Below are positions 3,547 through 27,397 of a DNA stretch of 33,381 nt, one piece after another. Every line of letters begins with the position of its first letter. Position 1 is the first letter of the stretch. The stretch is from Chiloscyllium plagiosum (Eukaryota), in contig NC_057758.1 in NCBI RefSeq assembly GCF_004010195.1, positions 3,018,616 through 3,051,996 of the forward strand. The letters run 5' to 3'. The notes beneath the pieces were generated by a model. That model was not told where the DNA came from, did no database searches, and saw nothing but the letters and a program-made list of their open reading frames with translations. The translations under genes and the position numbers were made by a program.

Positions 3547-3734
3547 ACGGGAAAGTGAGGACTGAGGATGCTGGATATCAGAGCTGAAAATGTGTTGCTG
3601 GAAAAAGCGCAGCAGGTCAGGCAGCATCAAAGGAACAGCAGAATCAGAAAGAAGGGCTCATGCCCGAAACGTCGATTCTCCTGCTCCTTGGATGCTACCT
3701 GACCTGCTGCGCTTTTCCAGCAACACATTTTCAG
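3547..3734. mobile_element. Penelope pLTR-derived inverted-repeat element in the GPCR intron
   Basis: Inverted arms of about 63 bp (3582-3645 and 3674-3736). 15-bp TSD ctgtttacagac(t/a)gt at 3532-3546 and 3735-3749. The centre carries GGGC-tcat-GCCC-GAAACGTC but the CUGANGA box is damaged. Confidence 0.85.
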
Positions 3735-4136
3735 CTGTTTACAGACAGTGTCAAGAAACCCTCCTGAATGGTAGGTTTAAATTCTGCCCCATCCAAGCCT
3801 CTTATTAATCCATTTGTTGTTGTTCCATCGTCATTCACTTTTATGCAGTTGACCAGAATTTTTATTAATTTTATTGATCGTTAAAGCACAAACGTTATTG
3901 CACTTACTACTGTGAGGGCAATTCAGGAGGGTTTCTTTTCACAGTATGTAAGCAATCTTATCAGGGAAGGCGTTATATAAGACAAAAAAAAACATACTGC
4001 CTTCCAATTTAGGATCATGCTGCAAACATATAAGTTTCATACACTGTCGTGGAACAAGTTTTGCTGGGATTTCAACAAGTGACATTTATAAAGTTTCCTT
4101 CTGTCCTTCACTTCCCTCACTTTTTATCTATTTTAG

Positions 4137-5056
4137 CGAATTCATCAGTAATTGCCATCCTGCCTCGAAGAAGATGTGGTCTCTCTGGATGTATCACCTA
4201 TTACCTTGTGTCCACGGCAGTGACAGATTTCCTTGTCATGGTCATTGCTGTAGTATTGAACCGAATTGCTGGAATGTTTTTCCCATCCAGTTTTCTTTTC
4301 ATCACGCCGATATGCAGTCTCCGTATTGTCCTGATCTACATCGCCATAGACAGCTCTGTTTGGTTAACAGTTGCCTTTACATTTGAACGATTTGTGGCCA
4401 TATGTTGTCAAAAATTGAAAACCAATTACTGTACTGAAAAGATGGCAGTGCGTGTTATAATCGTTGTTATGGTACTTGTCTGTGGAAAAGACATCTTTTT
4501 ATATTTTGTCTATGAACCTGTTTATATCAGTCGCAATGTGCCCTGGTTCTGCGTTTTAAAATTGGTGTTTTATACATCACCTGCATGGATCGCATATGAT
4601 GTAATTCGCTCGATTTTAAGCCCTTGTCTCCCATTCATTCTGGTTTTATTGCTCAATGCTCTGACAGTAAGGCACATTCTAACATCCAATAGAATTCGCA
4701 GGCAATTCCGCGCCAGGAACAATGGAGAAAATCAGAGGGACCCAGAGATGGAGAAACGGAAGAAATCCATGGTTTTACTCTTCGCCATCTCCGGCAGTTT
4801 CATTCTGTTATGTTCACTATTTTTCGTAACCATTCTCTACATCCGGATAGGGAAAGTTATATATTTCTCAGGGTCCAATTTCGATGGATCATCATTTAAT
4901 TTGGAGGAATACGGATATATGCTTCAGTTTTTGAGTTCCTGCATTAATCCGTTTATTTATGCTGGGACACAGAATAAGTTTAGAACAGAATTGATTAATG
5001 GAGTGAAGTATCCAACTAGTCTAATTATGAAAATAGTAAACTTGCGAAAAAAATAA
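4137..5056 (+). CDS. Exon 2 of a GPR139/GPR142-like orphan class A GPCR; spliced product 329 aa, ORF intact
   Basis: A polypyrimidine tract and 'ttttag' acceptor end at 4136. Hydrophobic helices carry AVTDFLV (TM2), VWLTVAFTFERFVAIC (TM3, DRY as ERF), PWFC (ECL2), LPFILVLLLNALTVRHI (TM5) and SSCINPFIY (NPxxY). The ORF-track GTG start at 4049 is intronic. Not claimed as the true GPR139 orthologue. Confidence 0.92.
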
Positions 5057-5117
5057 ATTCAAACATGAATTATACTTTGATTCCATCGAATTCCAGTAAA
5101 TTAGTTAATCATGAAAG

Positions 5118-5220
5118 GCTCTGACAGTAAGGCACATTCTAACATCCAATAGAACTCGCAGGCATCTCCACACTAGGAACAGTGGAGAAAATCAGAGGGA
5201 CCCTGAGATGGACAAACGGA
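5118..5220 (+). repeat. 103-bp direct copy of GPCR coding sequence 4658-4760
   Basis: Ungapped manual alignment shows about 9 mismatches in 103 nt. It abuts the 5' end of the CR1 at 5221. Confidence 0.95.
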
Positions 5221-6360
5221 TGTTTAACTTTATTTGCTCTAATTCTATGAAGGTATTACAAGTGCGGTGGACAACTGGGACTGATGTGATGTACCTCGAT
5301 TTACAAATGGTATTTGACAAGGTGCCAACACAAAAGTCTGCTACATGAGGTACAGGTGCAAGTTTGTGGTTTGACTCAGGGATCAGTGTTGCAACCACAA
5401 TTGTACATGATTCACGGAGATGTCTTGGATTTGGGATCACACATACTTTGTCAATGTTTACAGATGACACCGTCGCAAGCAAAGTGTGCAGAGGACTCTG
5501 AACGTTTGTAGAGGACTCTGAACGTTTGTAGAGGAAAATATTTAGATACATGAGTGGGCAAAGATCTGGGAGATGGAGTACTATGTTGATAAATGTTAAG
5601 CTATCCATTCTGGGAGAAATCATGGTTGAAGGACTATTATTTAAACGGTGAAACAATTGCAAAGTGATGCTGTGTGCTGGAACCTGGGTGTCCTTGTGCA
5701 TGAATCGCAGAATGTTGGTTTGCAGATACAAGAGATAAATGAAAGGAAAATGCAATTTTGTCCTTCATTGTTATAGAAATTGAGTTTACATGCACTAAAA
5801 TTATATTGCAGTGGTACCAGGTGCTGGCGAGGCCACACACGGAGTAATGCGTCCAGTTCTGGACTCCATAATTGGGAAGAATTTACTGGCACTGGAGGGG
5901 TACAAATGAGATTCACTAGGTTGATGCTGGATTTGAAAGGGTTGGGTAATGCGGACATACTGAGTAAACTCGAATTATATTCATTGGAATTTAGATGATT
6001 CGCGGGATCCTACAAAAGCATATAAAATTATGATGTGCATAGATAAGATAGAAGATGGGCTTTCGGTTCCACTATTATGCGAAATTAGAACAAAAGGGTA
6101 TAGCCTGAAAGTAAGGGGGTGCATATTGAGGACTGGATTCAGGGAGAATTCCTTCACCCGAAAAGTTGAGAATCTGTGAAATTCCCTGCCCAGTGGAGAC
6201 TTCATCGTTGATGGTAGATTAGTTTTGATCAGTAAAGCGCTTAAGGGTATGGTGACATGGTGTGTAAGTGAAGCTGAGGTCTCGTGAAGACCAGTCCCAT
6301 GTTCTTATCAAATGGCAGAGCTGGTGCGGAGTGCCAGATGGCCTAATCCTGCTCCTATTG
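5221..6360 (+). mobile_element. Degenerate 5'-truncated CR1 (RT to 3' UTR)
   Basis: Relics of DV.YLDFQKAFDKVP ('gatgtgatgtacctcgatttacaaatggtatttgacaaggtgcc') and QGSVL. The 3' end reads 'cagatggcctaatcctgctcctat'. An internal 20-bp tandem duplication lies at 5491-5530. Confidence 0.85.
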
Positions 6361-9368: not shown

Positions 9369-10060
9369 TAGAACATAGAACATAGAACATTAGAGAATAG
9401 TAGAGGCCCTTTGGCCCTCAATGTTGCGCCGGCCTGTGAAACCAATCTGAAGCCCATCCAACCTACACTATTCCATTCTCGTCCACATGTTTAATCAATG
9501 ACCAGTTAAATGCTCTTAAAGTGGGCGAGTCTACTACTGTTGGTGGCAGTGCGTTCCACGCTCCTACTACTCTCTGAGTAAAGAAACTACCTCTGATAAT
9601 TGTCCTATATCTATCACTACTCAAGTTAAAGCAATGTCCCCATCGCTATTCGAGGGAAAAGGCTCTCACTGCTCAACCTATCGAACCCTCTGATGATCGT
9701 GTATGTCTCAATTAAGTCACCTCTCAGCCATCTTCTCTCCACTGAAAACCATCTCAAGTCCCTTAACCTTTCCTCGTAAAGCCTTCCCTCCAAACCAGGC
9801 AACATCCCAGTAAATCTCCTCAGAACACTTCACAAAGCTTCCACATCCTTCCTATAATACAGTGACCAGAACTACATTCAATATTCCAAATGTGGTCACA
9901 CCAGATATTGCACAGCTGCAGCATGGTCTCAAGGTTCCAAAACTAAGTCCCGCTACCAATAAACACCGTATGCCTTCTTAAGAACCCTATCACCCTGGGT
10001 GGCAATTTTCAATGATCTATGTACCTGGACAATGAGATCTCTCTGCTCATCTGTACTGTC
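9369..10060 (-). mobile_element. Host CR1, segment 1 (3' end) of an element split by three insertions
   Basis: Terminal (tagaaca)n microsatellite at about 9369-9389. The antisense RT C-terminus reads EQRDLIVQVHRSLKIATQGDRVLKKAYG. The sequence resumes colinearly at 17317. Confidence 0.9.
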
Positions 10061-11371
10061 CTGTTGGAAGGACAGATCAGGAATTATCGTAGTAAAGACA
10101 AGGGATTCCCCCTCTGACCCACTCAATACCTCGGATCCTCTTGGCTGCTTGACCACCCTCCCGTAACATAAAATCAGACTGGGTGGAAGTGGAGGAGGAG
10201 GAGAGACAGACAGGGACAGGGAACGGAAGACCCACACGAGGAGGAAGAAGGGGCGGTTGACGGGAATGTTGTTGTTCCCGACCCTCAATCCGCAACGAGA
10301 GAAAGGGAAGATAAAGTAGACATAGAGGATGCCTCCGGAGTACCTAAACCAAGGCCTAGCGGAGGAAAACAAAAAAAAAGGGCAAGAGCATAAAGACTTA
10401 TCCCCTTAGGGAGGTACCAATTGGGAACAAAGAGATTGAGTTTGTAAGTGCCCCCCTCAACAATGGGGAGGTCAGAACATTTAAAAAGGAGATGAAAGTC
10501 CTGGTTAAGGATCGGGTAGGGTTGTCTGAACAAATTGATCAGTCTTTGGCGCCCAATCTGTATATATGGACTGAGTTATTGTCTATTTTGAATATACTAT
10601 TTACTGGAGAAGAAAGGGGACTTATACGAGGAGCAGCCATTAAAATATCGGACTGGAAACATTCCACTGGGGATGGGGATGCGAGGCAGGGTGAGACAAA
10701 GTTTCCCCTCAGAGACCCCGAGTGGGACAATCAAAACCCGGATCATAGAGAGGAAATGAGGAAATTGAAAGACCTGATTCGAAAAGGAATAAGAGGCAGT
10801 TCCAAAGTCGCAGAATTTGACTAAAGCCTTTGACGTTAGACAGGAAAAAAATGAGACACCTTCAGCTTTCTTGCAAAGATTAAGAGACTCAATGCGGAAA
10901 TACTCTGGAATGAACTCCGAGAACCCAGTGGGTCTTTTGAAAGTATATTTTGTGATAAAGGTATGGCCAGACATCCAGAGAAAGATACAGAAGATGGAAG
11001 GGTGGAGCGATAAAACATTAGATGAATTGTTAAGAGGGGCACAGGAAGTGTTTGTAAAGACAGAGGATGAGAGACAAAAACAGAAGGCAAAAATGATGGT
11101 AGCGACGGTTGACGAGGTAGTTTAGAAAAGAATGGAACCAATAGTAAGCAACCAGAGCGGCGGGTGGCAACATGAAGGACAGAGAGGAAGAGGGAGAGAG
11201 AGAGGACAAGGGGGAGCATTTGATAGAGGGCTCGGGCGACAGGGGCAGACATGGAAGTCTCCACAGGCAGGATGCTATTATTGCAGAAAGATAGTGCATT
11301 TTAAGCCGGAGTGTCCTGATCTACAAAGGGAAGAAAGGGCAATTCCGCTTATGAATTTTGATGAAGAATAT
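10061..11371 (+). pseudogene. gag: ERV gag (end of MA, CA, NC), disrupted
   Basis: YPLREVP, EVRTFKKEMK and LNILFTGEERGLIR motifs. MHR-like VRQEKNETPSAFLQRL. A single zinc knuckle CYYCRKIVHFKPEC (CX2CX4HX4C) at 11273-11314. Confidence 0.93.
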
Positions 11372-13341
11372 GGTTGTCAGGGGTTCTGCCCCTGGAGACC
11401 CACCAGGAACCCTTGATAAACTTGAAGGTGGAACACTGTAAGGAAGAGGTAGTCTTCCTCGTAGATACGGGCGCAGCACGGTGATCGCTGAATTTTAAAC
11501 CAAAGAAAGTAGGTATGTCAAGAAGATCAATTAGTGTTTCCGGGGTAAAAGGTGAAGGATTTACTGTTCCAGTATTTGAATCTATTATGATAGAAGGTCC
11601 AAAGGATAGAGTCACAGGGGAACTGTTTTATATCCCTAATATAGGAAGTAACTTACGAGGGAGAGATTTAATTATCCTCTTAGGACTGGAGATTGGCATT
11701 CAGGAAAAAGAAATAGTTGTACAAATGGCAATGTTGACAGACGATGTGGAGAAAGAGATAGACCCTATTGTACCGGCCAGAGAAGGGAATCGTGGAAGAC
11801 TACAGATCCCTCCTCGAGAAATAAATTTAAAAAGGTAAGGGGACGTTGTCTGTGAACGCCAAAATCCCATTTCCATAGAAATGAGGACTGCAACCAGTAA
11901 TTGAGGGACTGATTAGAGATGGACTGTTGGAGCCATGTTTGTATTCTTATAATACACAAATTCTATCAGCGAGGAAATCCGATGGAACTTATCGATTGGT
12001 GCAGGATTTGAGAACACTGAATCGAACAGTACAGATCAGGCACCCAGTGGTGCCAAATCCCTATACGTTATTAAGTAAGATCCATCATGACCAGAAATGG
12101 TTTAGTGTGATAGATTTAAAGGATGCCTTGGAGCGTGTCCCTTGGCGAAGGAAAGTAGGATTTTTTTGCCTTTGAATGTGAAGATCCCAAAACAGGACGG
12201 AAACAGCAATACCGGTGGACCTTGCTCCCTGGGGGTTTACAGAATCCCCAAGTCTATTTGGACAAATGTTAGAACAAATATTGGAGAAATCTAGCAGCCC
12301 CAAGGGAACTACCCTCTTGCAGCATGTAGATGACCACTTCGGAACAGGAAAAAGAAGAGCAAAAGCAGTAGAAGCCACTAACAAATTATTCAATTTCTTG
12401 GGTCAGCAGGACTGCGAGTATCTAAGAACAAACTACAATATGTGGAGCGAGAAGTGAAATACTTGGGGCATTTAGTTCGTGAGGGAAAGCGAAAGAAAAG
12501 CCAGGAATGGATGGGGGGAATAGTGGAGAAGCCAGTGCCCAGGACTAAACGAGAGTTATTTAAATTTTGGGGTCTAACGGGATATTGCAGGTTGTGGATT
12601 GACTCTTATGCTCAAAAGACTAAGAAATTATATCTCCAAGTACTAGAGAAGGAACCAATGTGTCTAAGTTGGTAAGGTGAGTAAAAAGAAATAGTTGAGG
12701 AACTCAAAAGTAATCTGATCCATACTGCCATGTTCGCCTTACCATCTCTAGATAAACCTTTCTAAATCTTTGCTACCATAGATAAGGGAGCGGCTTTGGG
12801 AATATTAACCCAAAGGTGGGGAGGAATGAAATAGCCACCTTTGAAATAGCTATCTTTTGAAGCTATTGGGATCCAGTATCCTGTGGTGGCCTGAGTGTGT
12901 GCAGGCCATGGCCGCCACTGCAGTGTTGGTGGAGGAAAGCAGAAAGCTCACATTTGGGAGAGTCCTAATGGTAAGCACTCCACAGCAAGTGAGAACGATC
13001 CTAAACCAAAAAAGCTGGGCGACGGTTCATGGATTCACAGATTCTGAAGTATGAGGCAATTTTAATAGAATAGGATGATCTAGTGTTGGTCACGGACAAT
13101 TGTTTAAATCCAGCTGCCTTTCTCTGGAAATGGGAAGTAGAATCTCCTCAGAATCCAGAGCACGACTGCCTTGACATTATAGAATACCAAACTAAGGACC
13201 ACATGGACCTGAGAGGCGTTCCACTTCATGCAGGATCATCCCGGGTAAAAACACGTTACTGCATATGCTGCAAACCAGATTATAGTTTAGAGTAGTGCTG
13301 GAAAAGCACTACAGTTCAGGCAGCATCCGAGGAGCAGGAAA

Positions 13342-13375
13342 ATCGACGTTTCGGGCAAAAGCCCTTCATCAGAAT
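13342..13375 (-). ncRNA. Minimal type I hammerhead ribozyme motif
   Basis: Minus strand reads att-CTGATGA-a-GGGC-tttt-GCCC-GAAA-CGTC-gat. Intact core, 4-bp stem II, palindromic ACGT stem III and a GUC cleavage triplet. Stem I is weak (3 bp). Confidence 0.75.
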
Positions 13376-13485
13376 GATTTACTATGGCCAGCATATATAT
13401 TTAGTCTTCCGATTCTGGGTAGTTCAGTATAATCTACTTGTATACTCTGGAAGGGTCTCAATCCCCAGTCTCTTCCTCCCGGGGT

Positions 13486-13520
13486 ATTCCTGATGAAGGG
13501 CTTGTGCCAGAAACGTCAAT
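13486..13520 (+). ncRNA. Minimal hammerhead motif with mutated stem II closing pair
   Basis: CTGATGA(13490)-a-GGGC-ttgt-GCCA-GAAA-CGTC. Confidence 0.55.
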
Positions 13521-14968
13521 TTTCCTGCTCCTCGGATGCTGCCTGAACTGCTGTGCTTTTCCAGCACCACTCAAATCTAGGATCATCCCGGGTGATTGAA
13601 GGGAAAAGACATAATGGGTATGCTGTCGTTGACGGGATGGAAGGTAGTTTGGTAGAGACAGGAAGGTTGCCAAATGGGAGGTCACCTCAGACCTGTGAAC
13701 TCTGGAAAGATCCCTTAGAGCGTTAGAAAATAAAGAGGGACAGCATATGCTGACTCCAAATATGCATTTGGTGTTGCGCACACTTTTGGAAAGATATGGC
13801 AGGAAAGAGGACTGATCGATAGCCAGGGGAAGGAACTAGCGCATGAGGAGTTGATTAAACGAAGTCCCTATTACTCCCCCGAAAATAGTGGCAGTCCATA
13901 TAAATGGTCATCAGAAAGAAAATTAACGAGAAGTGAGGGGAAATAGACTAGCCGATGAAGTGACTAAGGTAGCAGCCCTGAACCCACAAGAAGCGGTGAT
14001 TTATTCCCTAATACCTATTGTTCCAGGTCCTTGGGAAGCTCCTATATTTACTGAAAGAGAGGAAGAAGAATCGAAAGATTTAGGGGCTGCAAAAACAGCA
14101 GACGGGTATTGGATGTTACCTGATGGAAGGGAAATGGTAATCAAAATGATGATGTGCAAAACTATGGCTGTTCTAATCAAGGCAGCCATTGGGGAGTACA
14201 AACAATGTGTGATTTGGGTCTTAGGAGATATGTATGTAAAGGAATATATACAAATGCCAAACAAATACGTGAGGCGTTTATAATATGCAGAACGGTAAAT
14301 AAGAAAGTCTCGAGAAAACAGACCCCGGGAGGAAGAGACCCGAGATTGAGACCCTTCCAGAGTATACAGGTAGATTATACTGAAGTACCCAGATTAGGAA
14401 GACTAAAATATATGCTGATCATAGTAGATCACCTACCTGGTTGGGTTGACGCATACCCACTAGCTACCACCATTGCGAGCAGGGTATCTAAAACAATATT
14501 AGAGCACATAAAATCCAAATCTTATTTGGATTTCCTTATCTGGGAACGAATGGGGAATTGCCAATTACCAAACCTGTTCTTAAAGATGTATATACTGGGC
14601 TTGTCCTCCTCTTTGTCTTTCCTCAAGAAACAGTGTTCATCCGATTCGATCGGGAGATTGGGTCTTAGTAAAATCATGGACAGTGACTAAATTGCAACCG
14701 GACTGGGAAAGGCCGTATCAGGTTATTTTGACTACCAAAATGGTGATAAGGACGGCGGAGAAAAGCTGGACTCACTACACTCAGATCAAAGGTCCAGGGG
14801 AATCTCCAGTTGAGGAAGAAGTCTGGACAGTCGAATCAACGCAAGAACCACTGAAACTTAGGCTAAAGAGACTTTGAGTAACTGATTATACAGTGGCGAC
14901 GCGAGCGCGGGAGTATTTCTGTAGGATTGTATATTAAGTCTTTTGGGTGCTTCAGCACGATTTTTAGA

Positions 14969-16770
14969 ATGCTGGGGAAGCCGAGAGTTATGCAGAGTGC
15001 TGGGCTAATGTTACTGGGCTTAGTGTTATGTGTTATTAACGATCCCTGAGTCTTAAGTCTGATGGGAATGGCCTCGGGGATGGTACTTGGTATAATGTTC
15101 TCGTCACAGTACACCGGGCCCCCTTCCGACCAGCTTTCGATTTTCCCGACATAGAGTGTAACCTAATATACCTAACAATAAAGAAAACCACATGGCCTGA
15201 AGCAATTCTGGGGGTGTGGGGTCCAGGGGTGTGTGGTGAGACACCGATCAGGTATACTTCAATGAAACATTTGGGATAGAAATAAAAACAAACCGGAATG
15301 ATTTCTTGGGCTGTTGTTTTTGAATTAGCGTCGGGAAAACGGATAGACCTCCTGGATAATAAGATGCAACCTTTCTCCCCTCTCCATGACCCTAAAGTAG
15401 TAAACATTATCGGAGTAAAGGTCTTGAAACAGACTATCGAAATAGAAACTGGATACGGGGATGCAAATGTCTGGGTTGAATGGGTAAAGTATACTGTAAA
15501 AAGTCTGAATAAGAGCAATTGTTATGCATGTGCCTCCAGTAGGCCAGTGGCCCAGATGGTCCCCTTTCCACTCGGGTGGAAGTGAGACAAGAAGAGCATG
15601 AAATGTATGATAGCCCTGTGACAGGATAAGACTGCATGGAATGATTGGAACTGTACCTCCCCATCTCTGATGTTTCCTCCCTTGGAGAAGAAAGACTTAA
15701 AAGCCCCCGCCCCCATGTTTTCAGCCACAGTCGGAAATCACACGTCGTGTGTGCGTAGACGAGGTACAAATCGGTCTAGAGATTTGGGGGAGCTGAAATT
15801 ATGTGCAGAGATGAAGAATGTCACCGAAACTGACAAGGGAGCGAACTACTCAGCACTAAAGGTTCCCCGAGCGGATCTGTGGTGGTACAGTGGAGGCAAA
15901 ATATTGAGACCCACCCTGCCTCCGGATTGGAGAGGGATATGTGTAATTGGCAATTCCATTTACCCTGGCATTTGAGAAGGAAAAGATAGTAGGGAAAGAG
16001 GGAAGGAGTGAGAGATAAACTCGATGACAGAGTTTATCTCGATTCTATAGGAGACCGGGGTGTGGGGGGCGGATACCTGATGAGTTTAAGGCTCGCAACC
16101 AGATTGCAGCAGGCTTTGAGTCAGCTCTCCTTTGGTGGATAACAATTAATAAAAATGTACATTGGATAAAGTACATTTTCTATAATCAACAGCTATTTAT
16201 AAACTATATAAGAGATATGGTTAAAGGAATATCAGAACAGCTTGTTGCGACAAGTAGGATGGCATGGGAAAACAGAGTAGCCCTTGATATGATTCTGGCG
16301 GAAAAAGGGTGTATGTGTGTGATGTTAGGAAGAAGCTGTTGTACGTTTATTTCTAATAACATTGCGCCAGATGGTTCAATTACTAGGGTATTATGGGGAT
16401 TGCCTACCTTAACAGAGGAATTGGCTGAGAATTCAGGAGTAGACACATCTCTTACAGGATGGCTTGAATCATGGTTTGGAAAATGGAAGGGGGGAGGGTG
16501 GTTTCCATCCTTACTTCCCTGATAGTAGTAGCCGGGGTATTGGTAACCATTGGCTGTTGCATCATACCCTGTATACGAGGGCTCGCCCAAAGACTGATTG
16601 AGACAGCCTTAAATGAAACAGATGCCCCTAAAAGGGAATCAGGCAGAGGAATTTTATCTATTAAATAATGAGGGATGAATGAGTCCAAGATGGATGAAGT
16701 CTCAGATATGATGCTTGCGAATGTTGGGGGCGATGCTGAAAGGAAAAATTGCAGAAACAACAATTGAGTG
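14969..16770 (+). pseudogene. env: ERV env (SU-TM, gamma-type covalent linkage), disrupted
   Basis: Signal-like GLMLLGLVLCVI and SU CXXC (NCYAC). The furin site appears decayed (RSER). TM has PDEFKARNQIAAGFES, the immunosuppressive domain WENRVALDMILAEKG, CX6CC (CVMLGRSCC) and the membrane anchor ILTSLIVVAGVLVTIGCCIIPC. Ends are approximate. Confidence 0.92.
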
Positions 16771-16777
16771 TAAACAT

Positions 16778-16789
16778 AAAAAGGGGGAA
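16778..16789 (+). promoter_or_regulatory. Polypurine tract
   Basis: aaaaagggggaa just before the TG that opens the LTR. Confidence 0.9.
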
Positions 16790-16790
16790 T

Positions 16791-17316
16791 TGTGAGCAAT
16801 AATTATAAATGTTGTTACCTGCAAAAATCATAAGGCTGAATTATGTAAGAGGAAGGGGGTGTAGGTTAGCCTAGATATGCTTGTACAAACAGTTATAAGC
16901 ATCTGTTTCCTGCTTCTGAAAATAACAAAAAAAAACAAAATCAAGAGGTCATAAGGCTCAGTGTGGATAAAGAATGGGAGGAAATGTTGCTTTAGCAAGC
17001 AAGGAAGCAGATGGCAGTGAAAGAGGATACGTTAACAATGGACCAGAGCAGGATGTGGTGAAATGGCCAAGCAAGACTTGTACTTTGTTATGCACATGAC
17101 CGGTTAAGGCAAGAGATAAACAATAGTAATGGAAGCCGGGTTTAGAGTAGTGGGAGGAGGGAAAGAGAAATTAATTGTATATGAGTTGTGTACTCGTTCA
17201 GCTCGGGGTGCCTATCTTATAGGCATCATGCTTGCAAGCGTATAATAAACGATACTGCTGCTTCAGATCTTGTCTCGGACTGAAACTATTGAAGTGACTG
17301 GGTTCTATTTCCCACA
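16791..17316 (+). repeat. ERV 3' LTR (526 bp)
   Basis: Begins TGTGAG after the PPT and ends CCCACA exactly where the host CR1 resumes. AATAAA at 17244-17249. Confidence 0.88.
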
Positions 17317-18562
17317 TTACCATTAGCCCAGTACTCTGCATTCATGTTACTCCTTCCAAAGTGAATCACCTCACCCTTTTCGCATTAAACTCTATTTGCC
17401 ACCTTTCAGTTCGGCTCTGCAGCTTATCCATGTCTCTCTGCATCCTACAACATTTTTTATCACTATCCACAACTCTACCTACTTTAGTGTCATCCACAAA
17501 TTTATTAACTGATCCTTCAATGCCCTTATCCAGGCCAATTCCATAAATGCCAATCACCAGGGACCCCAAGGCAGATCCTTGTAGTACCCTAATAGTAACT
17601 GAACTCCAGGGCAAATTTTCCCATCAACCACCATCCTCTGTCTTCTTTCAGCTAGCCAATTTCTGATCCAAACCTCCAAATCACCCTCAATCGCGTGCCT
17701 CTGCACTTTGTGCAATAGCCGAACGTGGGGAACCTTATCAAACGCCTTACTGAAATCCATAGACACCACACCAACCCGTTTACACTCATCCATCTGTTTA
17801 GTCACCTTTTCAAATAACTCAATCAGGTTTGTGAGTCACGACTTACCTTTCACAAAACCGTGTTGACCATCCCTAATCAACTTATTCTTATCGATAGGAT
17901 TATAGATAATCTATAGGATTATAAATCCTATCTCTTACAAGCCTTTACAACTCTCCGCCCACAACAGAAATAAGGTTCACAAGTCTTTTATTTCCAGGGT
18001 TGTCTCTACTCCCCTTCGTGAACAAGGGAACAACATTTGCTCTGTTCAAGTCTTCTGGCACTATTCCAGTCGACAATGACAATATCAAGATCAAAGCCAA
18101 AGGCTTTTCCATCTCTTTCCTGGTTTTCCGCCGAATCCTAGGATAATTCCCATCTGGCCCAGGGAACGTACCTATTTTTACACTTTACAGAAGTGCGAAC
18201 ACTTCCTCCTTATGCACTTCAAAGCCATCTAATCCACTAGCCTTCATCTCAGTAGACTCCTCGACCACATTGTCTTTCTTTAGTGTGAATACTGACGAAA
18301 ATTGTTCGTTTAGTGCTTCGTCTATCTCCTCTGACTCCACGCACAACTTCCTACTACTATGCATGATTGGGCCTCATCTTACTCTCGTCATTCTTTTATT
18401 CCTGATCTAGCTTTCAAAAGCCTGAGGGTTTTCATTGATACTATCCGCCAATGATTTGTCATGTCCCCTCCTGGCCCTTCCTAGCGCTCTGTTTAAGTCT
18501 TTCCTGGCTACCTGTAACTCTCAAGCGCCCTCACTGAGACATCACATCTCATCCAAACATAA
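17317..18562 (-). mobile_element. Host CR1, segment 2 (RT core)
   Basis: MDFSKAFDKVPHVRLL, WIRNWLAERRQR, LQGSALG and KFVDDTKVG (FADD motif) on the minus strand. Confidence 0.93.
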
Positions 18563-22090: not shown

Positions 22091-23510
22091 GAACGATGCA
22101 AGCATTCATTAAGTCCACATCCTGTGATGGCAAACATAAATATCACCCTTTGCAATTGAGTCATTTTCCTTTTAACCTTCCCGCTCCGCATATATGTACA
22201 CAGAACCTAAGGATTTAGCTTATTCCCGTTTGCAAGAGTTCACCTCATGAAATCTTTGTTCCTCCGAACTCCTCATTTAAGATCGCTGCTTCTTTTTGTA
22301 ATCATCAAATAACTTTGAATTGCAAGTGTTAATTATTCCTCGGGATCGAATTCCAGTTATTCCATACTTACTATTCAACAAACAATATAAATGCTTCAGG
22401 TGTTAGGTTCCTGCATCGATCACTTTATTTATCCTGGGTCCCATGAAAATACTAAACAAGTGTAAATAATGGGGTGACAAATCCAAATTAGTTCATTATT
22501 TCAAATAATTAAGACTTGAGTATAGAAAAATCCATAATTGCGCATTTTATAGTAAAATGTCATCTTCCTCACCTTATTACTCGTAACCCGACTACTAGCG
22601 CCCAAATTCCCCTTCTCTTTACGTATTCCGATAAGAATACAGAAGAATTCGAACAAGGATGCTAGAATTTTGTTTTCTGTTCGCTTTCTAATTTGTTTGT
22701 GGATGCAACATTATGGTGTTTGCCGTTTCCTTAACATTGTAGATTAATTTAGAATTTAATGGAGGGGTTTATGGTTTATGAGGAAGGTGGGACTGATTTG
22801 TTTGCACGAGCAGTATTATTCAGTAGGATTCTAATTTAGGAGAAAATCAGCCCACCTTTTCTCTGCATTACACCACTCCTGGAGGCAGAGTCCTGTCAGC
22901 ATCACTGGCCTGCATTGAATTCAATTTCCTGTCATGAGATATGTCCTGCCTTAAACTTCCAGATGTTCAGATACATTCCGACATAATAGATGCACTTGCG
23001 GCTTAGCTTATTACACTTTACACATATCATTGGTGCGAAGGTGAGCCTTGTCTTGCAATCCCTGTATTGGAATGCAAATTATTCCCTCCAATCCTATGAC
23101 AAGTTCAATTGCTGTTTAGAATACCCTCTTTGGCTGTTTGGGGATGCTGTATGTAGTCTTCATTTAGCTTCTTCTGTTCATGATCTGCGGTAGAGAGAAG
23201 AGCTCAAACTTAAAACCACATCCATCTTGCATGCAACGCCTGTATGAAAATCGGCGTCTGCATGAGTATTTTGCTTTTTGACACACAGAATATTTCCTGG
23301 CCAGATTCATTGAGCCATTCAATTTATTGGAGATAGGGTATCATTCTTCACCTGCCGTCATTCTTTTGCTCTTGACTGAAATCCTACGTTTTTTTTGTCG
23401 GGATGATAGATAAACCAAGGTGGGAAAAAAAATTTCTGTGTCATAAATACTTCGTCAAATAACCTACCCTAACTGCTGTGGTTCTGTTCGCCGAGCTGGA
23501 ATTTTTTGTT

Positions 23511-23550
23511 GAAAACGTTTCGTCCCCTGTCTAGGTGACATCCTCAGTGC
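23511..23550 (-). ncRNA. Minimal hammerhead motif (core intact, stem I mismatch)
   Basis: Minus strand reads GCA-CTGAGGA-t-GTCaCCT-agac-AGGgGAC-GAAA-CGTT-ttc. Confidence 0.65.
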
Positions 23551-23759
23551 TTGGGAGCCTCCTGTGAAGCGCTTCTGTGGTGTTTCCTTCGGCATTTATA
23601 GTGGCCTGTCCCTGCCGCTTCCGGTTGTCAGTTTCAGCTGTCCGCTGTAGTGGCCGGTATATTGGGTCCAGGTCGATGTGTTTGTTGATGGAGATTGTGG
23701 ATGGCACTCTATAAATGCCGGAGGAAACACCACAGAAGCCCTTCACAGGAGGCTCCCAA

Positions 23760-23799
23760 GCACTGAGAATGTCACCTAGACAGGGGACGAAACGTTTGC
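23760..23799 (+). ncRNA. Minimal hammerhead motif with core mutation (CUGAGAA)
   Basis: GCA-CTGAGAA-t-GTCaCCT-agac-AGGgGAC-GAAA-CGTT-TGC. The G8-to-A change is expected to inactivate it. Confidence 0.5.
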
Positions 23800-23835
23800 A
23801 ACAAAAACATCCAGCTCGGCGAACAGAACCACAGC

Positions 23836-24291
23836 AACAGGGGAATATATTATGGGGAACAAAGAAATGGCAGAAGAATTAAATGGCTACTTCAGATCTG
23901 TGTTCACTGGGGAAGACACAAGCAATCTCCCTGAGGTAACAGTGGCTGAAGGACCTGAACTTAAGGGAATTTATATTTGCCAGGATTTGGTGTTGGAGAA
24001 ACTGTTAGGTCTGAAGGTTGATAAGTCTCCCGGGCCTGATCGTCTACATCCCAGGGTACTGAAGGAGGTGGCTCGGGAAATCGTGGATGCGTTGGTGATT
24101 ATTTTCCAGAGTTCAATAGATTCGGGGTCGGTTCCTGAGGATTGGAGGGTGGCAAATGTTATACCACTTTTTAAGAAAGGTAGGCGAGAGAAAGCAGGAA
24201 ATTATAGACCAGTTAGTCTGACCTCAGTGGTGCGAAAGATGCTGGAGTCTATTATAAAGGATGAAATTACGACACATCTGGATAGTAGTAA
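23836..24291 (+). mobile_element. Young CR1 ORF2 fragment inside the Penelope composite
   Basis: Uninterrupted frame MAEELNGYFRSVFT..DKSPGPDRLHPRVLKE..VPEDWRVANVIPLFKKG..NYRPVSLTSV up to the N gap. Confidence 0.95.
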
Positions 24292-24451
24292 NNNNNNNNN
24301 NNNNNNNNNNNNNNNNNNNNNNNNNNNNNNNNNNNNNNNNNNNNNNNNNNNNNNNNNNNNNNNNNNNNNNNNNNNNNNNNNNNNNNNNNNNNNNNNNNNN
24401 NNNNNNNNNNNNNNNNNNNNNNNNNNNNNNNNNNNNNNNNNNNNNNNNNNN
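24292..24451. other. Assembly gap (160 N)
   Basis: Run of N. Confidence 0.99.
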
Positions 24452-24542
24452 ACAGCTGAAACTGACAACCGGAAGCGGCAGGGACAGGTCACTATTAATG
24501 CCGGAGGAAACACCACAGAAGCGCTTCACAGGAGGCTCCTAA

Positions 24543-24582
24543 GCACTGAGGATGTCACCTGGACAGGGGACGAAACGTTTGC
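24543..24582 (+). ncRNA. Minimal type I hammerhead motif, intact
   Basis: GCA-CTGAGGA-t-GTCaCCT-ggac-AGGgGAC-GAAA-CGTT-TGC. Stem I is GCA/TGC, stem III is palindromic ACGT and the triplet is GUU. Confidence 0.78.
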
Positions 24583-25211
24583 AACAAAAACTTCCAGTTC
24601 GGCGAACAGAACCACAGCTACGAGCACCCGAGCTACAAATCTTCTCACAAACTTTGAACCTACCCTAAGCTAAAGATGTCAATGTACGGAGAACGCAATT
24701 CAGGACCAAACGTTGACTTAAAAAAAGGATGCAAAATTAGGATCCACGATTAGTTTACGTAATTGGCCAATACGTAAAGCTGTTTAACAGCACGTGTCTG
24801 AATGGAATCAATGGTATTTACTGAAATTATAATTATATTAAAAGTAACTTCACTTCCATCACTGCCTTTCGTGCTCTCCAAAATACAGTACAATCTGTTC
24901 AGAAATTGAACGCTCATGCCTTTACTTGTACGAAAAACATTTAATTTTGGAATATTTGAATATGTTTGAAAAAGTTTTGCTTATTTGAAAATAATTTTGA
25001 TTATCTTGAGACCAGTGAGAGTGTTACAATCACTAAGGCAGGAATTTTCTGATTCCATTTACTTGTAATACTTTACACTTGCTGAAATTATGGGATTATT
25101 CTTCTTTTGCACTTTAAAAATACAGTTTGCCCAGTTCTATCAATTTCTGATGGACCGAAAATGGCAAGTCTCAGAATCATGAATAAGCAATGGGACAGAT
25201 GGAAACTATCC

Positions 25212-25547: not shown

Positions 25548-27397
25548 TGGGAAAGCGGAAGCGAGGACCAGACGGCTGCTCGGTAAGTGAAGTGATTGTT
25601 TTAAGGCTTACCTCGAGCGTCACGCCCTCCAATTTTACAGAGAGTGCTGCTGGGTAAGTAAAGCAATTGTTTACAAGCTTATATCGGGCTTCAGAGCCTC
25701 CAATTTACACAGGATGGCAGAGGACCAGAAGGCTGCTGGGTAAGTAAACTAATTGTTTCAAAGCTTACCTCGAGCGTCGGGGCCTCCATTTTAACAGCGG
25801 GAGCGAGGAACAGAGGGCTGTTGGGTAATTGAATTAATATAGTTATGTGCTTGCTTTACCTGAAACACCACGAAGGTGTTATTTCCCACCCATCCTTCTC
25901 CTCTCACCTAATAAAAGAAGATTCTCTGCTTCGGATTTGTAAAATAACTAGCTTTAATTTTATTTTTCAGTAGTCTCTTTGGGAATTTAGAAGAGTGGGA
26001 ATAGCCATTAGGGCTGTTGCATGTTCCTCCTGCACAATGTGGGCAGTAAGGCTCACCACTAGTGTCGCTGCTGACTTTCTCTCCAGGAAGTGCACCCGAA
26101 GCCAGCTTCGCAAAAATCGTGTTATGGGTCTAGAGCTGGATGAATTTCGGATCATTCACTTGATGGAGGGATTTACTGAGAGTCGTTACAGGGAGGTCGT
26201 CTCAACTCATTTACCAGAAAAAGGCAGGTGGGCAACAGTAAGTTTTATTGAGTTTTATGAGAAGGTGACCAAATAGGTGGATGAGGGTAAAGCGGTTGAT
26301 GTGGTGTATTTGGATTTCAGAAAGGCATTTGATACGTTTGCCCATGGTAGACTATTGCACAAAATACGGAGGAATGGGATTGACGTTGATTTCGTGGTTT
26401 GGATCAGAAATTAATTAGCTGAAAGAAAACAGAGTGTGGTGATTGATGGGAGATCTTCATGCTCGAGTTCAGTTACTATTTGTATGCCGCAAAGACCTGT
26501 TTTGACCTGGATGAGGGCGTAGAAGAATGGATTTGTGGATGACACTAAGGTCAATGGAGTTGTGGATAGTGCTGAAGGATGCTGCTCGTTAGAGCGGGAT
26601 ATAGATAAGCTGCAGTGCTGGCAAATAGAGTTTAATGCGGAAAAGTACGAGTTGATTCCCTTGGAAGGAGCAATAGGAATGCAGAGTACTGGGCTTTTGG
26701 TAAGATTCTAGGGCGTGTGGATGAGCACAGAGATCTTGGTGTTCATGTACATAGAACCTTAAAAGTTGTCACCCAGTTTGATAGGGTTGTTAAGAAGGTC
26801 TATGACCTTTATTTGTAGAGGAATTGAGTTTAGGAGCCATGAAGTCCTGTTGCAGCTGTACAAAACTGTACTTGGAGGACTCCGTGCTGTTCTGGTCACG
26901 AAATTAAAGGAAGGATGTGGAAGCATTGGAACGGGTTCAGAGGAGATTTACTAGGATTTCACCTGGTACGGAGGGGAGGTATTCTGAGGAAAGGATGAGG
27001 GAATTCAAGCTGTTTTTGTCAGAGAGAAGAAGGTTAAGACGTGGCATAATTGAGACATATATGATAACCCGAGCGTTGGATAATTTGGACAATGAGAGCC
27101 TTTTACCTCGTCTGGCGATGACCAGCAGGAGGCGACATAGCTTTAAATTGATGGGTGATAGATATCAGACAGATGTCTGATGTAGTTTCTTTATTTAGAG
27201 AGTAGTAGAGGGTTGGAATGCCCTGCCTGCAACAGTAGTACAGTCGCCAACTTGCAGGGCATTTAAATCGTCATTGGATCAACATATGAATGAAAATGGA
27301 ATAGTTTAGGTTGGATGGGCTTCAGATTGGTTTCACAGGTCGGCGCAACATCGTGGACGGAAAGGTCTAAATGCACTGTAATGCTCTATGTTATATA
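25548..27397 (+). mobile_element. Internally deleted CR1 retaining 5' UTR, ORF1 N-terminus, RT C-terminal half and 3' UTR
   Basis: ORF1 zinc finger/zipper relic AVACSSCTMW..RKCT..LELDEFRII..YREVV runs at about 26240 directly into RT (FIEFYEKVTK*VDEGKAVDVVYLDFRKAFD). Later LERVQRRFTR. The 3' UTR resembles 19850-19930. Confidence 0.88.
25560..25830 (+). repeat. Tandem repeat of about 85 bp (about 3.4 units) in the CR1 5' UTR
   Basis: Unit core gaggaccaga.ggctgctgGGTAAGT..ttgttt..aGCTTACCtcgagcgtc..cctccaatttt.ACAG. GGTAA(G/T)T occurs at 25582, 25653, 25739 and 25824. Confidence 0.85.

Follow-up and report, generated by a model that had tools for sequence, protein, structure and literature searches.

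Probable local templating of the sequence enclosed by paired Penelope-like ends in Chiloscyllium plagiosum: a provirus-borne cassette and its genome-wide counterparts

Inside a decayed endogenous retrovirus of Chiloscyllium plagiosum, two short Penelope-like ends stand head to head and enclose an inverted piece of retroviral integrase sequence. The window (the whole stretch of 33,381 nucleotides analysed here, from contig NC_057758.1) also holds, within the same provirus, a segment that could have supplied that piece. An earlier note on this DNA proposed that the piece was captured from close by during a single target-primed integration. The locus therefore raises two questions: was the enclosed sequence copied from the neighbourhood when the element inserted, and does the same happen at other insertions of this family?

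Anatomy of the cassette

Alignments of the repeats, arms and spacer confirm a foldback insertion that carries an inverted fragment of provirus sequence. Its order along the window is target duplication, tailed arm, 111-nt inverted integrase piece, tail-less arm, target duplication (Table 1). When reversed and complemented, the spacer (13375-13485) agrees with 14322-14431 at 100 of 110 positions, and its 10 mismatches and one gap are in line with the 11 or so differences counted earlier by hand. At its left edge 1-3 bases are compatible with both the arm and the donor, and its right junction is blunt. The arms (13278-13372 versus 13490-13584) are 89% complementary; they differ at 8 of 88 aligned bases, or at 10 of 95 from end to end, close to the earlier figure of about 9 in 93. 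The final 3 bases of the left arm are the same as the end of the target repeat. The description of the arms as a pair of pLTRs laid down in one event holds, but they are unequal, only the left one being tailed.

Table 1. Positions of the cassette, its motifs and its host provirus within the window
Feature	Position	Strand	Remarks
Host endogenous retrovirus, decayed	10052..17316	+	gag p30, pol, env; without 5′ LTR; inside an older repeat
3′ LTR of host	about 16791-17316	+	limits by inspection (polypurine tract, TG...CA)
Left target-site duplication	13232..13246	+	14 or 15 nt; in provirus RNase H region (named by inspection)
Left arm	13247..13377	-	Penelope-like 3′ end (pLTR) with tail of about 37 nt
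Minimal type I hammerhead motif, left	13340..13376	-	about 3 bp of helix I; core and helix II (4 bp) preserved; read by eye
Spacer	13375..13485	-	inverted copy of provirus integrase region
Right arm	13486..13578	+	same pLTR, without tail
Minimal hammerhead motif, right, damaged	13486..13523	+	mispaired at the closing position of helix II and the first of helix I; by eye
Right target-site duplication	13579..13593	+	15/15 identical to 13232-13246
Likely donor, integrase-region segment	14322..14431	+	100/110 match; 728 bases beyond right repeat

The flanking repeats do agree over the full 15 bp that had been claimed for the duplication, but its true length is 14 or 15 nt, because a 21-nt shortening of the host provirus sits at the left repeat and the first base may be arm-derived. 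This offset of 21 is seen in 19 of the 21 copies that have both flanks (28 examined). In other provirus copies the target sequence is present once and not duplicated (six copies aligned). A resemblance between the spacer's end and the target end, to which the note had drawn attention, amounts to a 7-nt match and is at chance level, since 6% of 240 permuted pairs reach 7.

If the same cassette recurred at unrelated loci, it would be a mobile family of its own. Each of two genome searches found the arm-spacer-arm arrangement at only one of 40 scored places. Hence it is not a fixed non-autonomous family, and we conclude that it is a single insertion of two short head-to-head Penelope-like 3′ ends around a spacer.

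The element family itself is abundant. The genome-wide motif and spacer searches covered a 3.56-Gb genome, in which an exact 18-nt arm motif has 55,762 copies, so that the family numbers at least as many. At one locus (L184), a related arm, about 85% like the window arms, forms the end of a frame that matches RVT_1 at E 1.9e-5, which is under the curated cut-off. Judged by sequence, the arms are the 3′ pLTR of a Penelope-like element that encodes a reverse transcriptase (RT). Just upstream of a related arm at another locus (L105), the frame P0001 shows GIY-YIG-like and Cys/His motifs by eye; it has no Pfam hit, and its Atlas score of 0.97 is to clusters in which only 13% of members carry GIY-YIG. 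A Pfam search of seven element frames returned no match. The features of the insertion unit (inverted shortened copy, one-sided tail, target duplication) are all present in the window cassette. Head-to-head pairs with 60-200 nt between exact motifs number 607, and most of those listed contain element body. About 9 of 30 unselected arms, examined by eye, have no family body directly upstream of the motif (two of them adjoin an inverted arm), and from this it follows that copies of the family preferentially begin immediately ahead of the hammerhead core and not at the cut site. When single arms were folded, three of the four pieces were not unusually stable.

Related insertions occur elsewhere in the window. 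A sister arm family has left a short palindromic insertion at 3582-3736; in contrast to most arms, its left one ends where the hammerhead is predicted to cut. Another Penelope-like family, which has a hammerhead-like motif of its own, occupies 23474-24660, in the order inverted arm, direct arm, fragment of a CR1-like LINE RT (by inspection, from a stretch partly read) and tailed arm. What appears to be a duplication of 12-13 nt bounds the whole; the LINE fragment may have been captured or may be a later insertion.

The note had also placed a hammerhead on each strand. Judged against the minimal-type descriptor in excerpts of PMC4209133, both cores can be read by eye. However, an Rfam scan of the window matched neither, and both motifs are weakened: the helix I pair lost from the right one is that at the predicted cut site, its helix II is damaged as well, and the left one keeps only some 3 helix I pairs. 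A role of the ribozymes in the capture is thus unsupported, and the motifs look decayed and incidental. Furthermore, they can form no dimer within one transcript, because they lie on opposite strands.

Public read contigs cover parts of the cassette. A contig of run X2 matches 13234-13340 with zero differences, and a contig of run X3, which bears another organism label, bridges the junction between spacer and right arm with 4 differences in 71; X2 may come from the source sample, whereas the X3 contig may stem from an orthologous locus or from a separate event. Among the matches listed, no contig of the four runs spans the whole cassette, and none from organism A covers the inner junctions.

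The predicted fold of a transcript of 13232-14440 pairs the spacer with the donor (101 expected pairs, with exact runs of up to 25 nt) and not arm with arm; a spacer-donor duplex is a possibility only. The antisense function envisaged for such a transcript is unsupported, the provirus being broken in many places and without a 5′ LTR, and a search of sequencing runs listed no RNA run that contains the sequence. Taken together, the cassette is a scar and gives no indication of being functional today; it is likely a recurring by-product of how the element seals its insertions, not a working ribozyme device.

The host provirus as a possible source of the spacer

Profile searches of the host provirus match gag p30, a weak integrase and env. 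The likely donor stretch lies within a reading frame that has the weak integrase match (rve, E 0.003, below the Pfam cut-off). The older repeat split by the provirus remains as two halves, 9375-10051 and 17317-17823, which match the minus strand of 26247-27396; at the left border a few bases of this repeat are missing along with the 5′ LTR. Dating of the provirus by comparing its LTRs is impossible for want of the 5′ copy.

Were the spacer a plain copy of the local segment, 14322-14431 might be expected to be its best match, and the note had suggested this check. A genome search gave the opposite result: other provirus copies match at 93-94%, against 90% for the local one. The spacer is 7-12 differences away from the 31 copies compared and 11 from the local donor, a comparison that favours the copies, which were chosen as the closest matches. 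Among these 31 no rare allele is common to spacer and local donor; the donor has 5 private changes, none of which is found in the spacer, and the spacer has 7. This private-change rate of the spacer (7 in 110) matches that of the host (103 in 1498 positions). As the divergences of spacer, host and arms are similar, provirus and capture are of about the same age, and the capture would have followed soon after the provirus integrated. The variants at this locus do not separate an early local copy from a copy of RNA of another provirus copy. The value of the case is the pattern across loci and not this provirus, whose presence around the window copy is incidental.

Local donors across the genome

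Cassettes were drawn by eye from the matches listed in five pattern searches; 80 were picked for a visible spacer start unlike the element, and 10 kb around each was examined. One without the central motif and three with fewer than 40 non-element bases were removed, leaving 76. With the element masked, a donor was called local if it matched the spacer over at least 45 nt at 84% or more in the cassette's own locus and beat all other loci. As controls, 712 length-matched segments from the same loci were used.

A qualifying local donor was found for 23 of the 76 cassettes. The best donor lies within 1.5 kb for 22 of the 76 hand-picked cassettes, compared with 19 of the 712 control segments (Fisher p 1.3e-13). 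In a stricter set, without L074 and L091 (arm beside the donor) and without L096, L109 and L161 (donor abutting the cassette), 17 of 76 remain (p 1.9e-9). The donor gaps of these 17 are 31-1106 nt, that of the window is 728, and one further case lies at 2.6 kb. Donors are found on the left and on the right. Counting the window, 13 are inverted; 9 are direct, and the inverted ones lie nearer than the direct ones (p 0.003; p 0.013 without the three abutting cases). Clear examples are L082 (99%, direct), L090 (99%, inverted), L075 (466 nt, inverted) and L149 (15-nt perfect duplication). For L082, L083, L090, L110, L149 and L150, among others, the donor is absent from all other sampled loci.

The divergence between spacer and donor correlates with that between the two arms (rho 0.52, p 0.014, n 22), as expected if the copy is made at insertion. 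Hence the collection of paired arms that the note had called for supports both of its central proposals, a local source and capture at insertion time, which the window locus alone does not. A nearby copy, a donor still in place and flanking duplications, the marks of locally templated insertion, are found in the window cassette and in 22 of the 76 others.

The pattern has clear bounds. For 53 of the 76 spacers there is no qualifying donor within 5 kb, and for 10 donor-less cassettes a search of 15 kb on each side gave nothing better than unrelated loci; many of the 53 are independent arm pairs, residual element sequence or common repeats. Of the 16 single-tailed cassettes whose duplication scored well, 7 are local, although automatic calling of duplications is unreliable and missed the window's own. 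The strictest pattern gave 15 local captures among 100 places listed. Set against at least 55,762 arm motifs, this suggests that local capture accounts for well under 1% of insertions and is probably a minor source of mutation.

Several loci in the set deserve separate mention. L091, in which the whole cassette is duplicated, was set aside as a different event, as was L074, where an arm stands beside the donor and read-through or arm-guided copying is probable. L074 is a young cassette (4840-5110 and 5340-5531 of that locus) whose spacer equals 60 nt adjoining another arm 440 bases off; it may reflect local hopping with 5′ transduction, or homology between the arms may have guided the copying. 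At L083 (5140-5160), a 10-nt match between arm end and donor flank is the longest microhomology in the set. In the centres of L145, L154, L160 and L095 both arms run into the same non-element sequence to give longer fold-backs, which suggests two primings of an RNA whose start lay in host DNA upstream of the arm. It should also be noted that the window contains, at 4034-5056, a single-exon frame of a rhodopsin-family GPCR (7tm_1, E 1e-21), and at 5115-5220 a 106-nt direct copy (91%) of that frame's 4655-4760.

Bridging of the two ends, and comparison with known systems

The reading that we favour, and consider probable if only just, is that both cut ends were extended on element RNA and then bridged by a copy of DNA some 0.7-0.8 kb from the break. 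A staggered cut would have given rise to the 14-15-nt duplication. Priming at two points, the tail end and a site about 37 nt inside it, would then account for one tailed and one tail-less arm, by analogy with what the anole element does in vitro (PMC11167929). Both cDNAs end 4-7 nt upstream of the hammerhead core, where arm ends pile up, and which is probably the 5′ end of the RNA. Next, a free 3′ end would copy nearby sequence; the copies, of 50-470 nt, are present at many loci, and fold-back on the same side of the break would yield an inverted copy, reach across the break a direct one. Both a DNA template and the polymerase are presumed at this step. Finally, the ends would be joined with little microhomology. 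The earlier picture, a single cDNA that jumped out and back, fares worse, since an arm with a tail facing one without it points to a separate priming at each cut end.

The bridging template is more likely DNA than RNA: exposed DNA near a break would account for donors on both sides and in both orientations, for the limit of about 1 kb and for the shorter distance of fold-backs. Most junctions are blunt or have a few bases added. Of the 32 that were scored, 2 show microhomology of at least 3 nt, and there is no significant excess at the far junction (2/15 near versus 5/17 far, p 0.4). The usual repair polymerase fits poorly, as there is so little microhomology and the tracts are longer and come from farther out than the inserts of polymerase theta. 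Tentatively, bridging might even be built into the element, with the RT leaving the fixed RNA start by the hammerhead and jumping end to end onto nucleic acid within about 1 kb of the break. We rate this as somewhat unlikely; if it holds, shark genomes keep hundreds of dated records of it.

The enzyme at the site is itself a reverse transcriptase, and a reading in which it acts alone, after double priming, would have it run off the RNA 5′ end onto a local transcript before the ends are joined. No second enzyme is then needed, and both arms stop at one fixed point. R2 elements carry out template jumping, and the blunt or short-insert junctions suit end-to-end jumps of that kind. The capture dates to a young provirus, whose own transcript would be the template here, and the locality data fit equally well. 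However, this reading offers no reason for inverted donors to lie nearer than direct ones and requires transcription at every such site, and no spliced spacer came to notice; we regard it as possible but unlikely.

Another template would be RNA or cDNA of a different active copy of the provirus family, the match some 730 bases away then reflecting a landing within the same family. The closer matches of other copies (7 versus 11 differences), and the fact that spacer and local copy have no private change in common among the 31 copies compared, speak for it, but an early capture followed by star-like ageing, in which donor and spacer each accumulate changes of their own, predicts the same, and the comparison copies were chosen for closeness. 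Distant capture is unlikely here because not one of the other 76 spacers finds a match in this provirus family, and the window piece lies within 1 kb of its site, like other local cases. We therefore find this origin improbable. Later entry of the spacer by repair or conversion between the arms, a fixed non-autonomous element or an assembly artefact is very improbable: although no listed contig spans the cassette, it is unique among the 40 scored places, all its parts carry private divergence of 9-11%, beyond what assembly would invent, the X2 contig agrees with it over 13234-13340 and the X3 contig, with few differences, across one inner junction, and divergences correlate across loci.

Returning to the bridging of two extended ends by nearby DNA, its first steps have precedents. 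The endonuclease-bearing Penelope-like unit described in excerpts of PMC8557442 consists of a pLTR, an inverted 5′-truncated copy and a one-sided tail of 30-40 nt. The anole enzyme cuts and extends both strands, and two adjacent start sites define its tail (PMC11167929); this in vitro work of 2024 goes as far as cutting and priming both strands. The window cassette is like that unit in its head-to-head arms, its tail on one arm, its short duplication and the hammerhead motif in the arm, and differs in that both arms are bare pLTRs joined by non-element DNA. Excerpts of PMC4209133 describe Schistosoma hammerhead pairs on opposite strands, 100-700 bp apart. The window motifs share with such metazoan minimal hammerheads the core, helix II, a short helix I and almost no helix III, and differ in that both are weakened and stand on opposite strands.

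To judge from excerpts of the works concerned, it is already published that sequence can be captured between Penelope ends and that L1 sites can receive templated inserts. In Adineta vaga, host DNA was captured between Penelope pLTRs in a few cases, with mobilisation in trans (excerpts of PMC3846280); there, too, unrelated sequence lies between solo pLTRs within a target duplication. In the same excerpts the donors are not traced to the neighbourhood of the insertion, and no frequency or range of distances is given. In the literature searched, which left subscription papers and supplements largely outside, we did not find kilobase-range local capture as a recurrent Penelope outcome, and a term search of the accessible part of bioRxiv 10.64898/2026.07.22.740005 returned nothing relevant.

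Polymerase theta inserts, according to excerpts of PMC7165422, are 3-30 bp long, come from DNA flanking the break and fall into a direct (cross-break) and an inverted (fold-back) class. The shark cassettes show the same two classes. By tract length they lie outside this group: with tracts of 48-466 nt and gaps of mostly 30-1100 bp, they are 10-fold longer and reach farther.

For Penelope-like elements, the cassettes offer a countable record of the joining step by which insertion is completed, with tract length, distance, side and orientation as its readout. If bridging is indeed built into the element, it would be a steady maker of short local duplications and of inverted, double-strand-forming copies of introns, promoters and proviruses. 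The closest parallel is L1. Templated insertions at L1 sites are reported in excerpts of bioRxiv 10.1101/2024.08.27.596794 (22 cases, typically under 250 bp and from within 15 bp) and of PMC11702581 (3 cases). As those sources describe it, genomic DNA near the target is likewise copied in at integration, alongside twin priming; here, in contrast, the gaps are mostly 30-1100 bp, the tracts reach 466 nt, and the events are germline fossils of another retroelement class. Locally templated insertion is thereby extended from L1 in tumours to a telomerase-related class, to the vertebrate germline and to a longer range.
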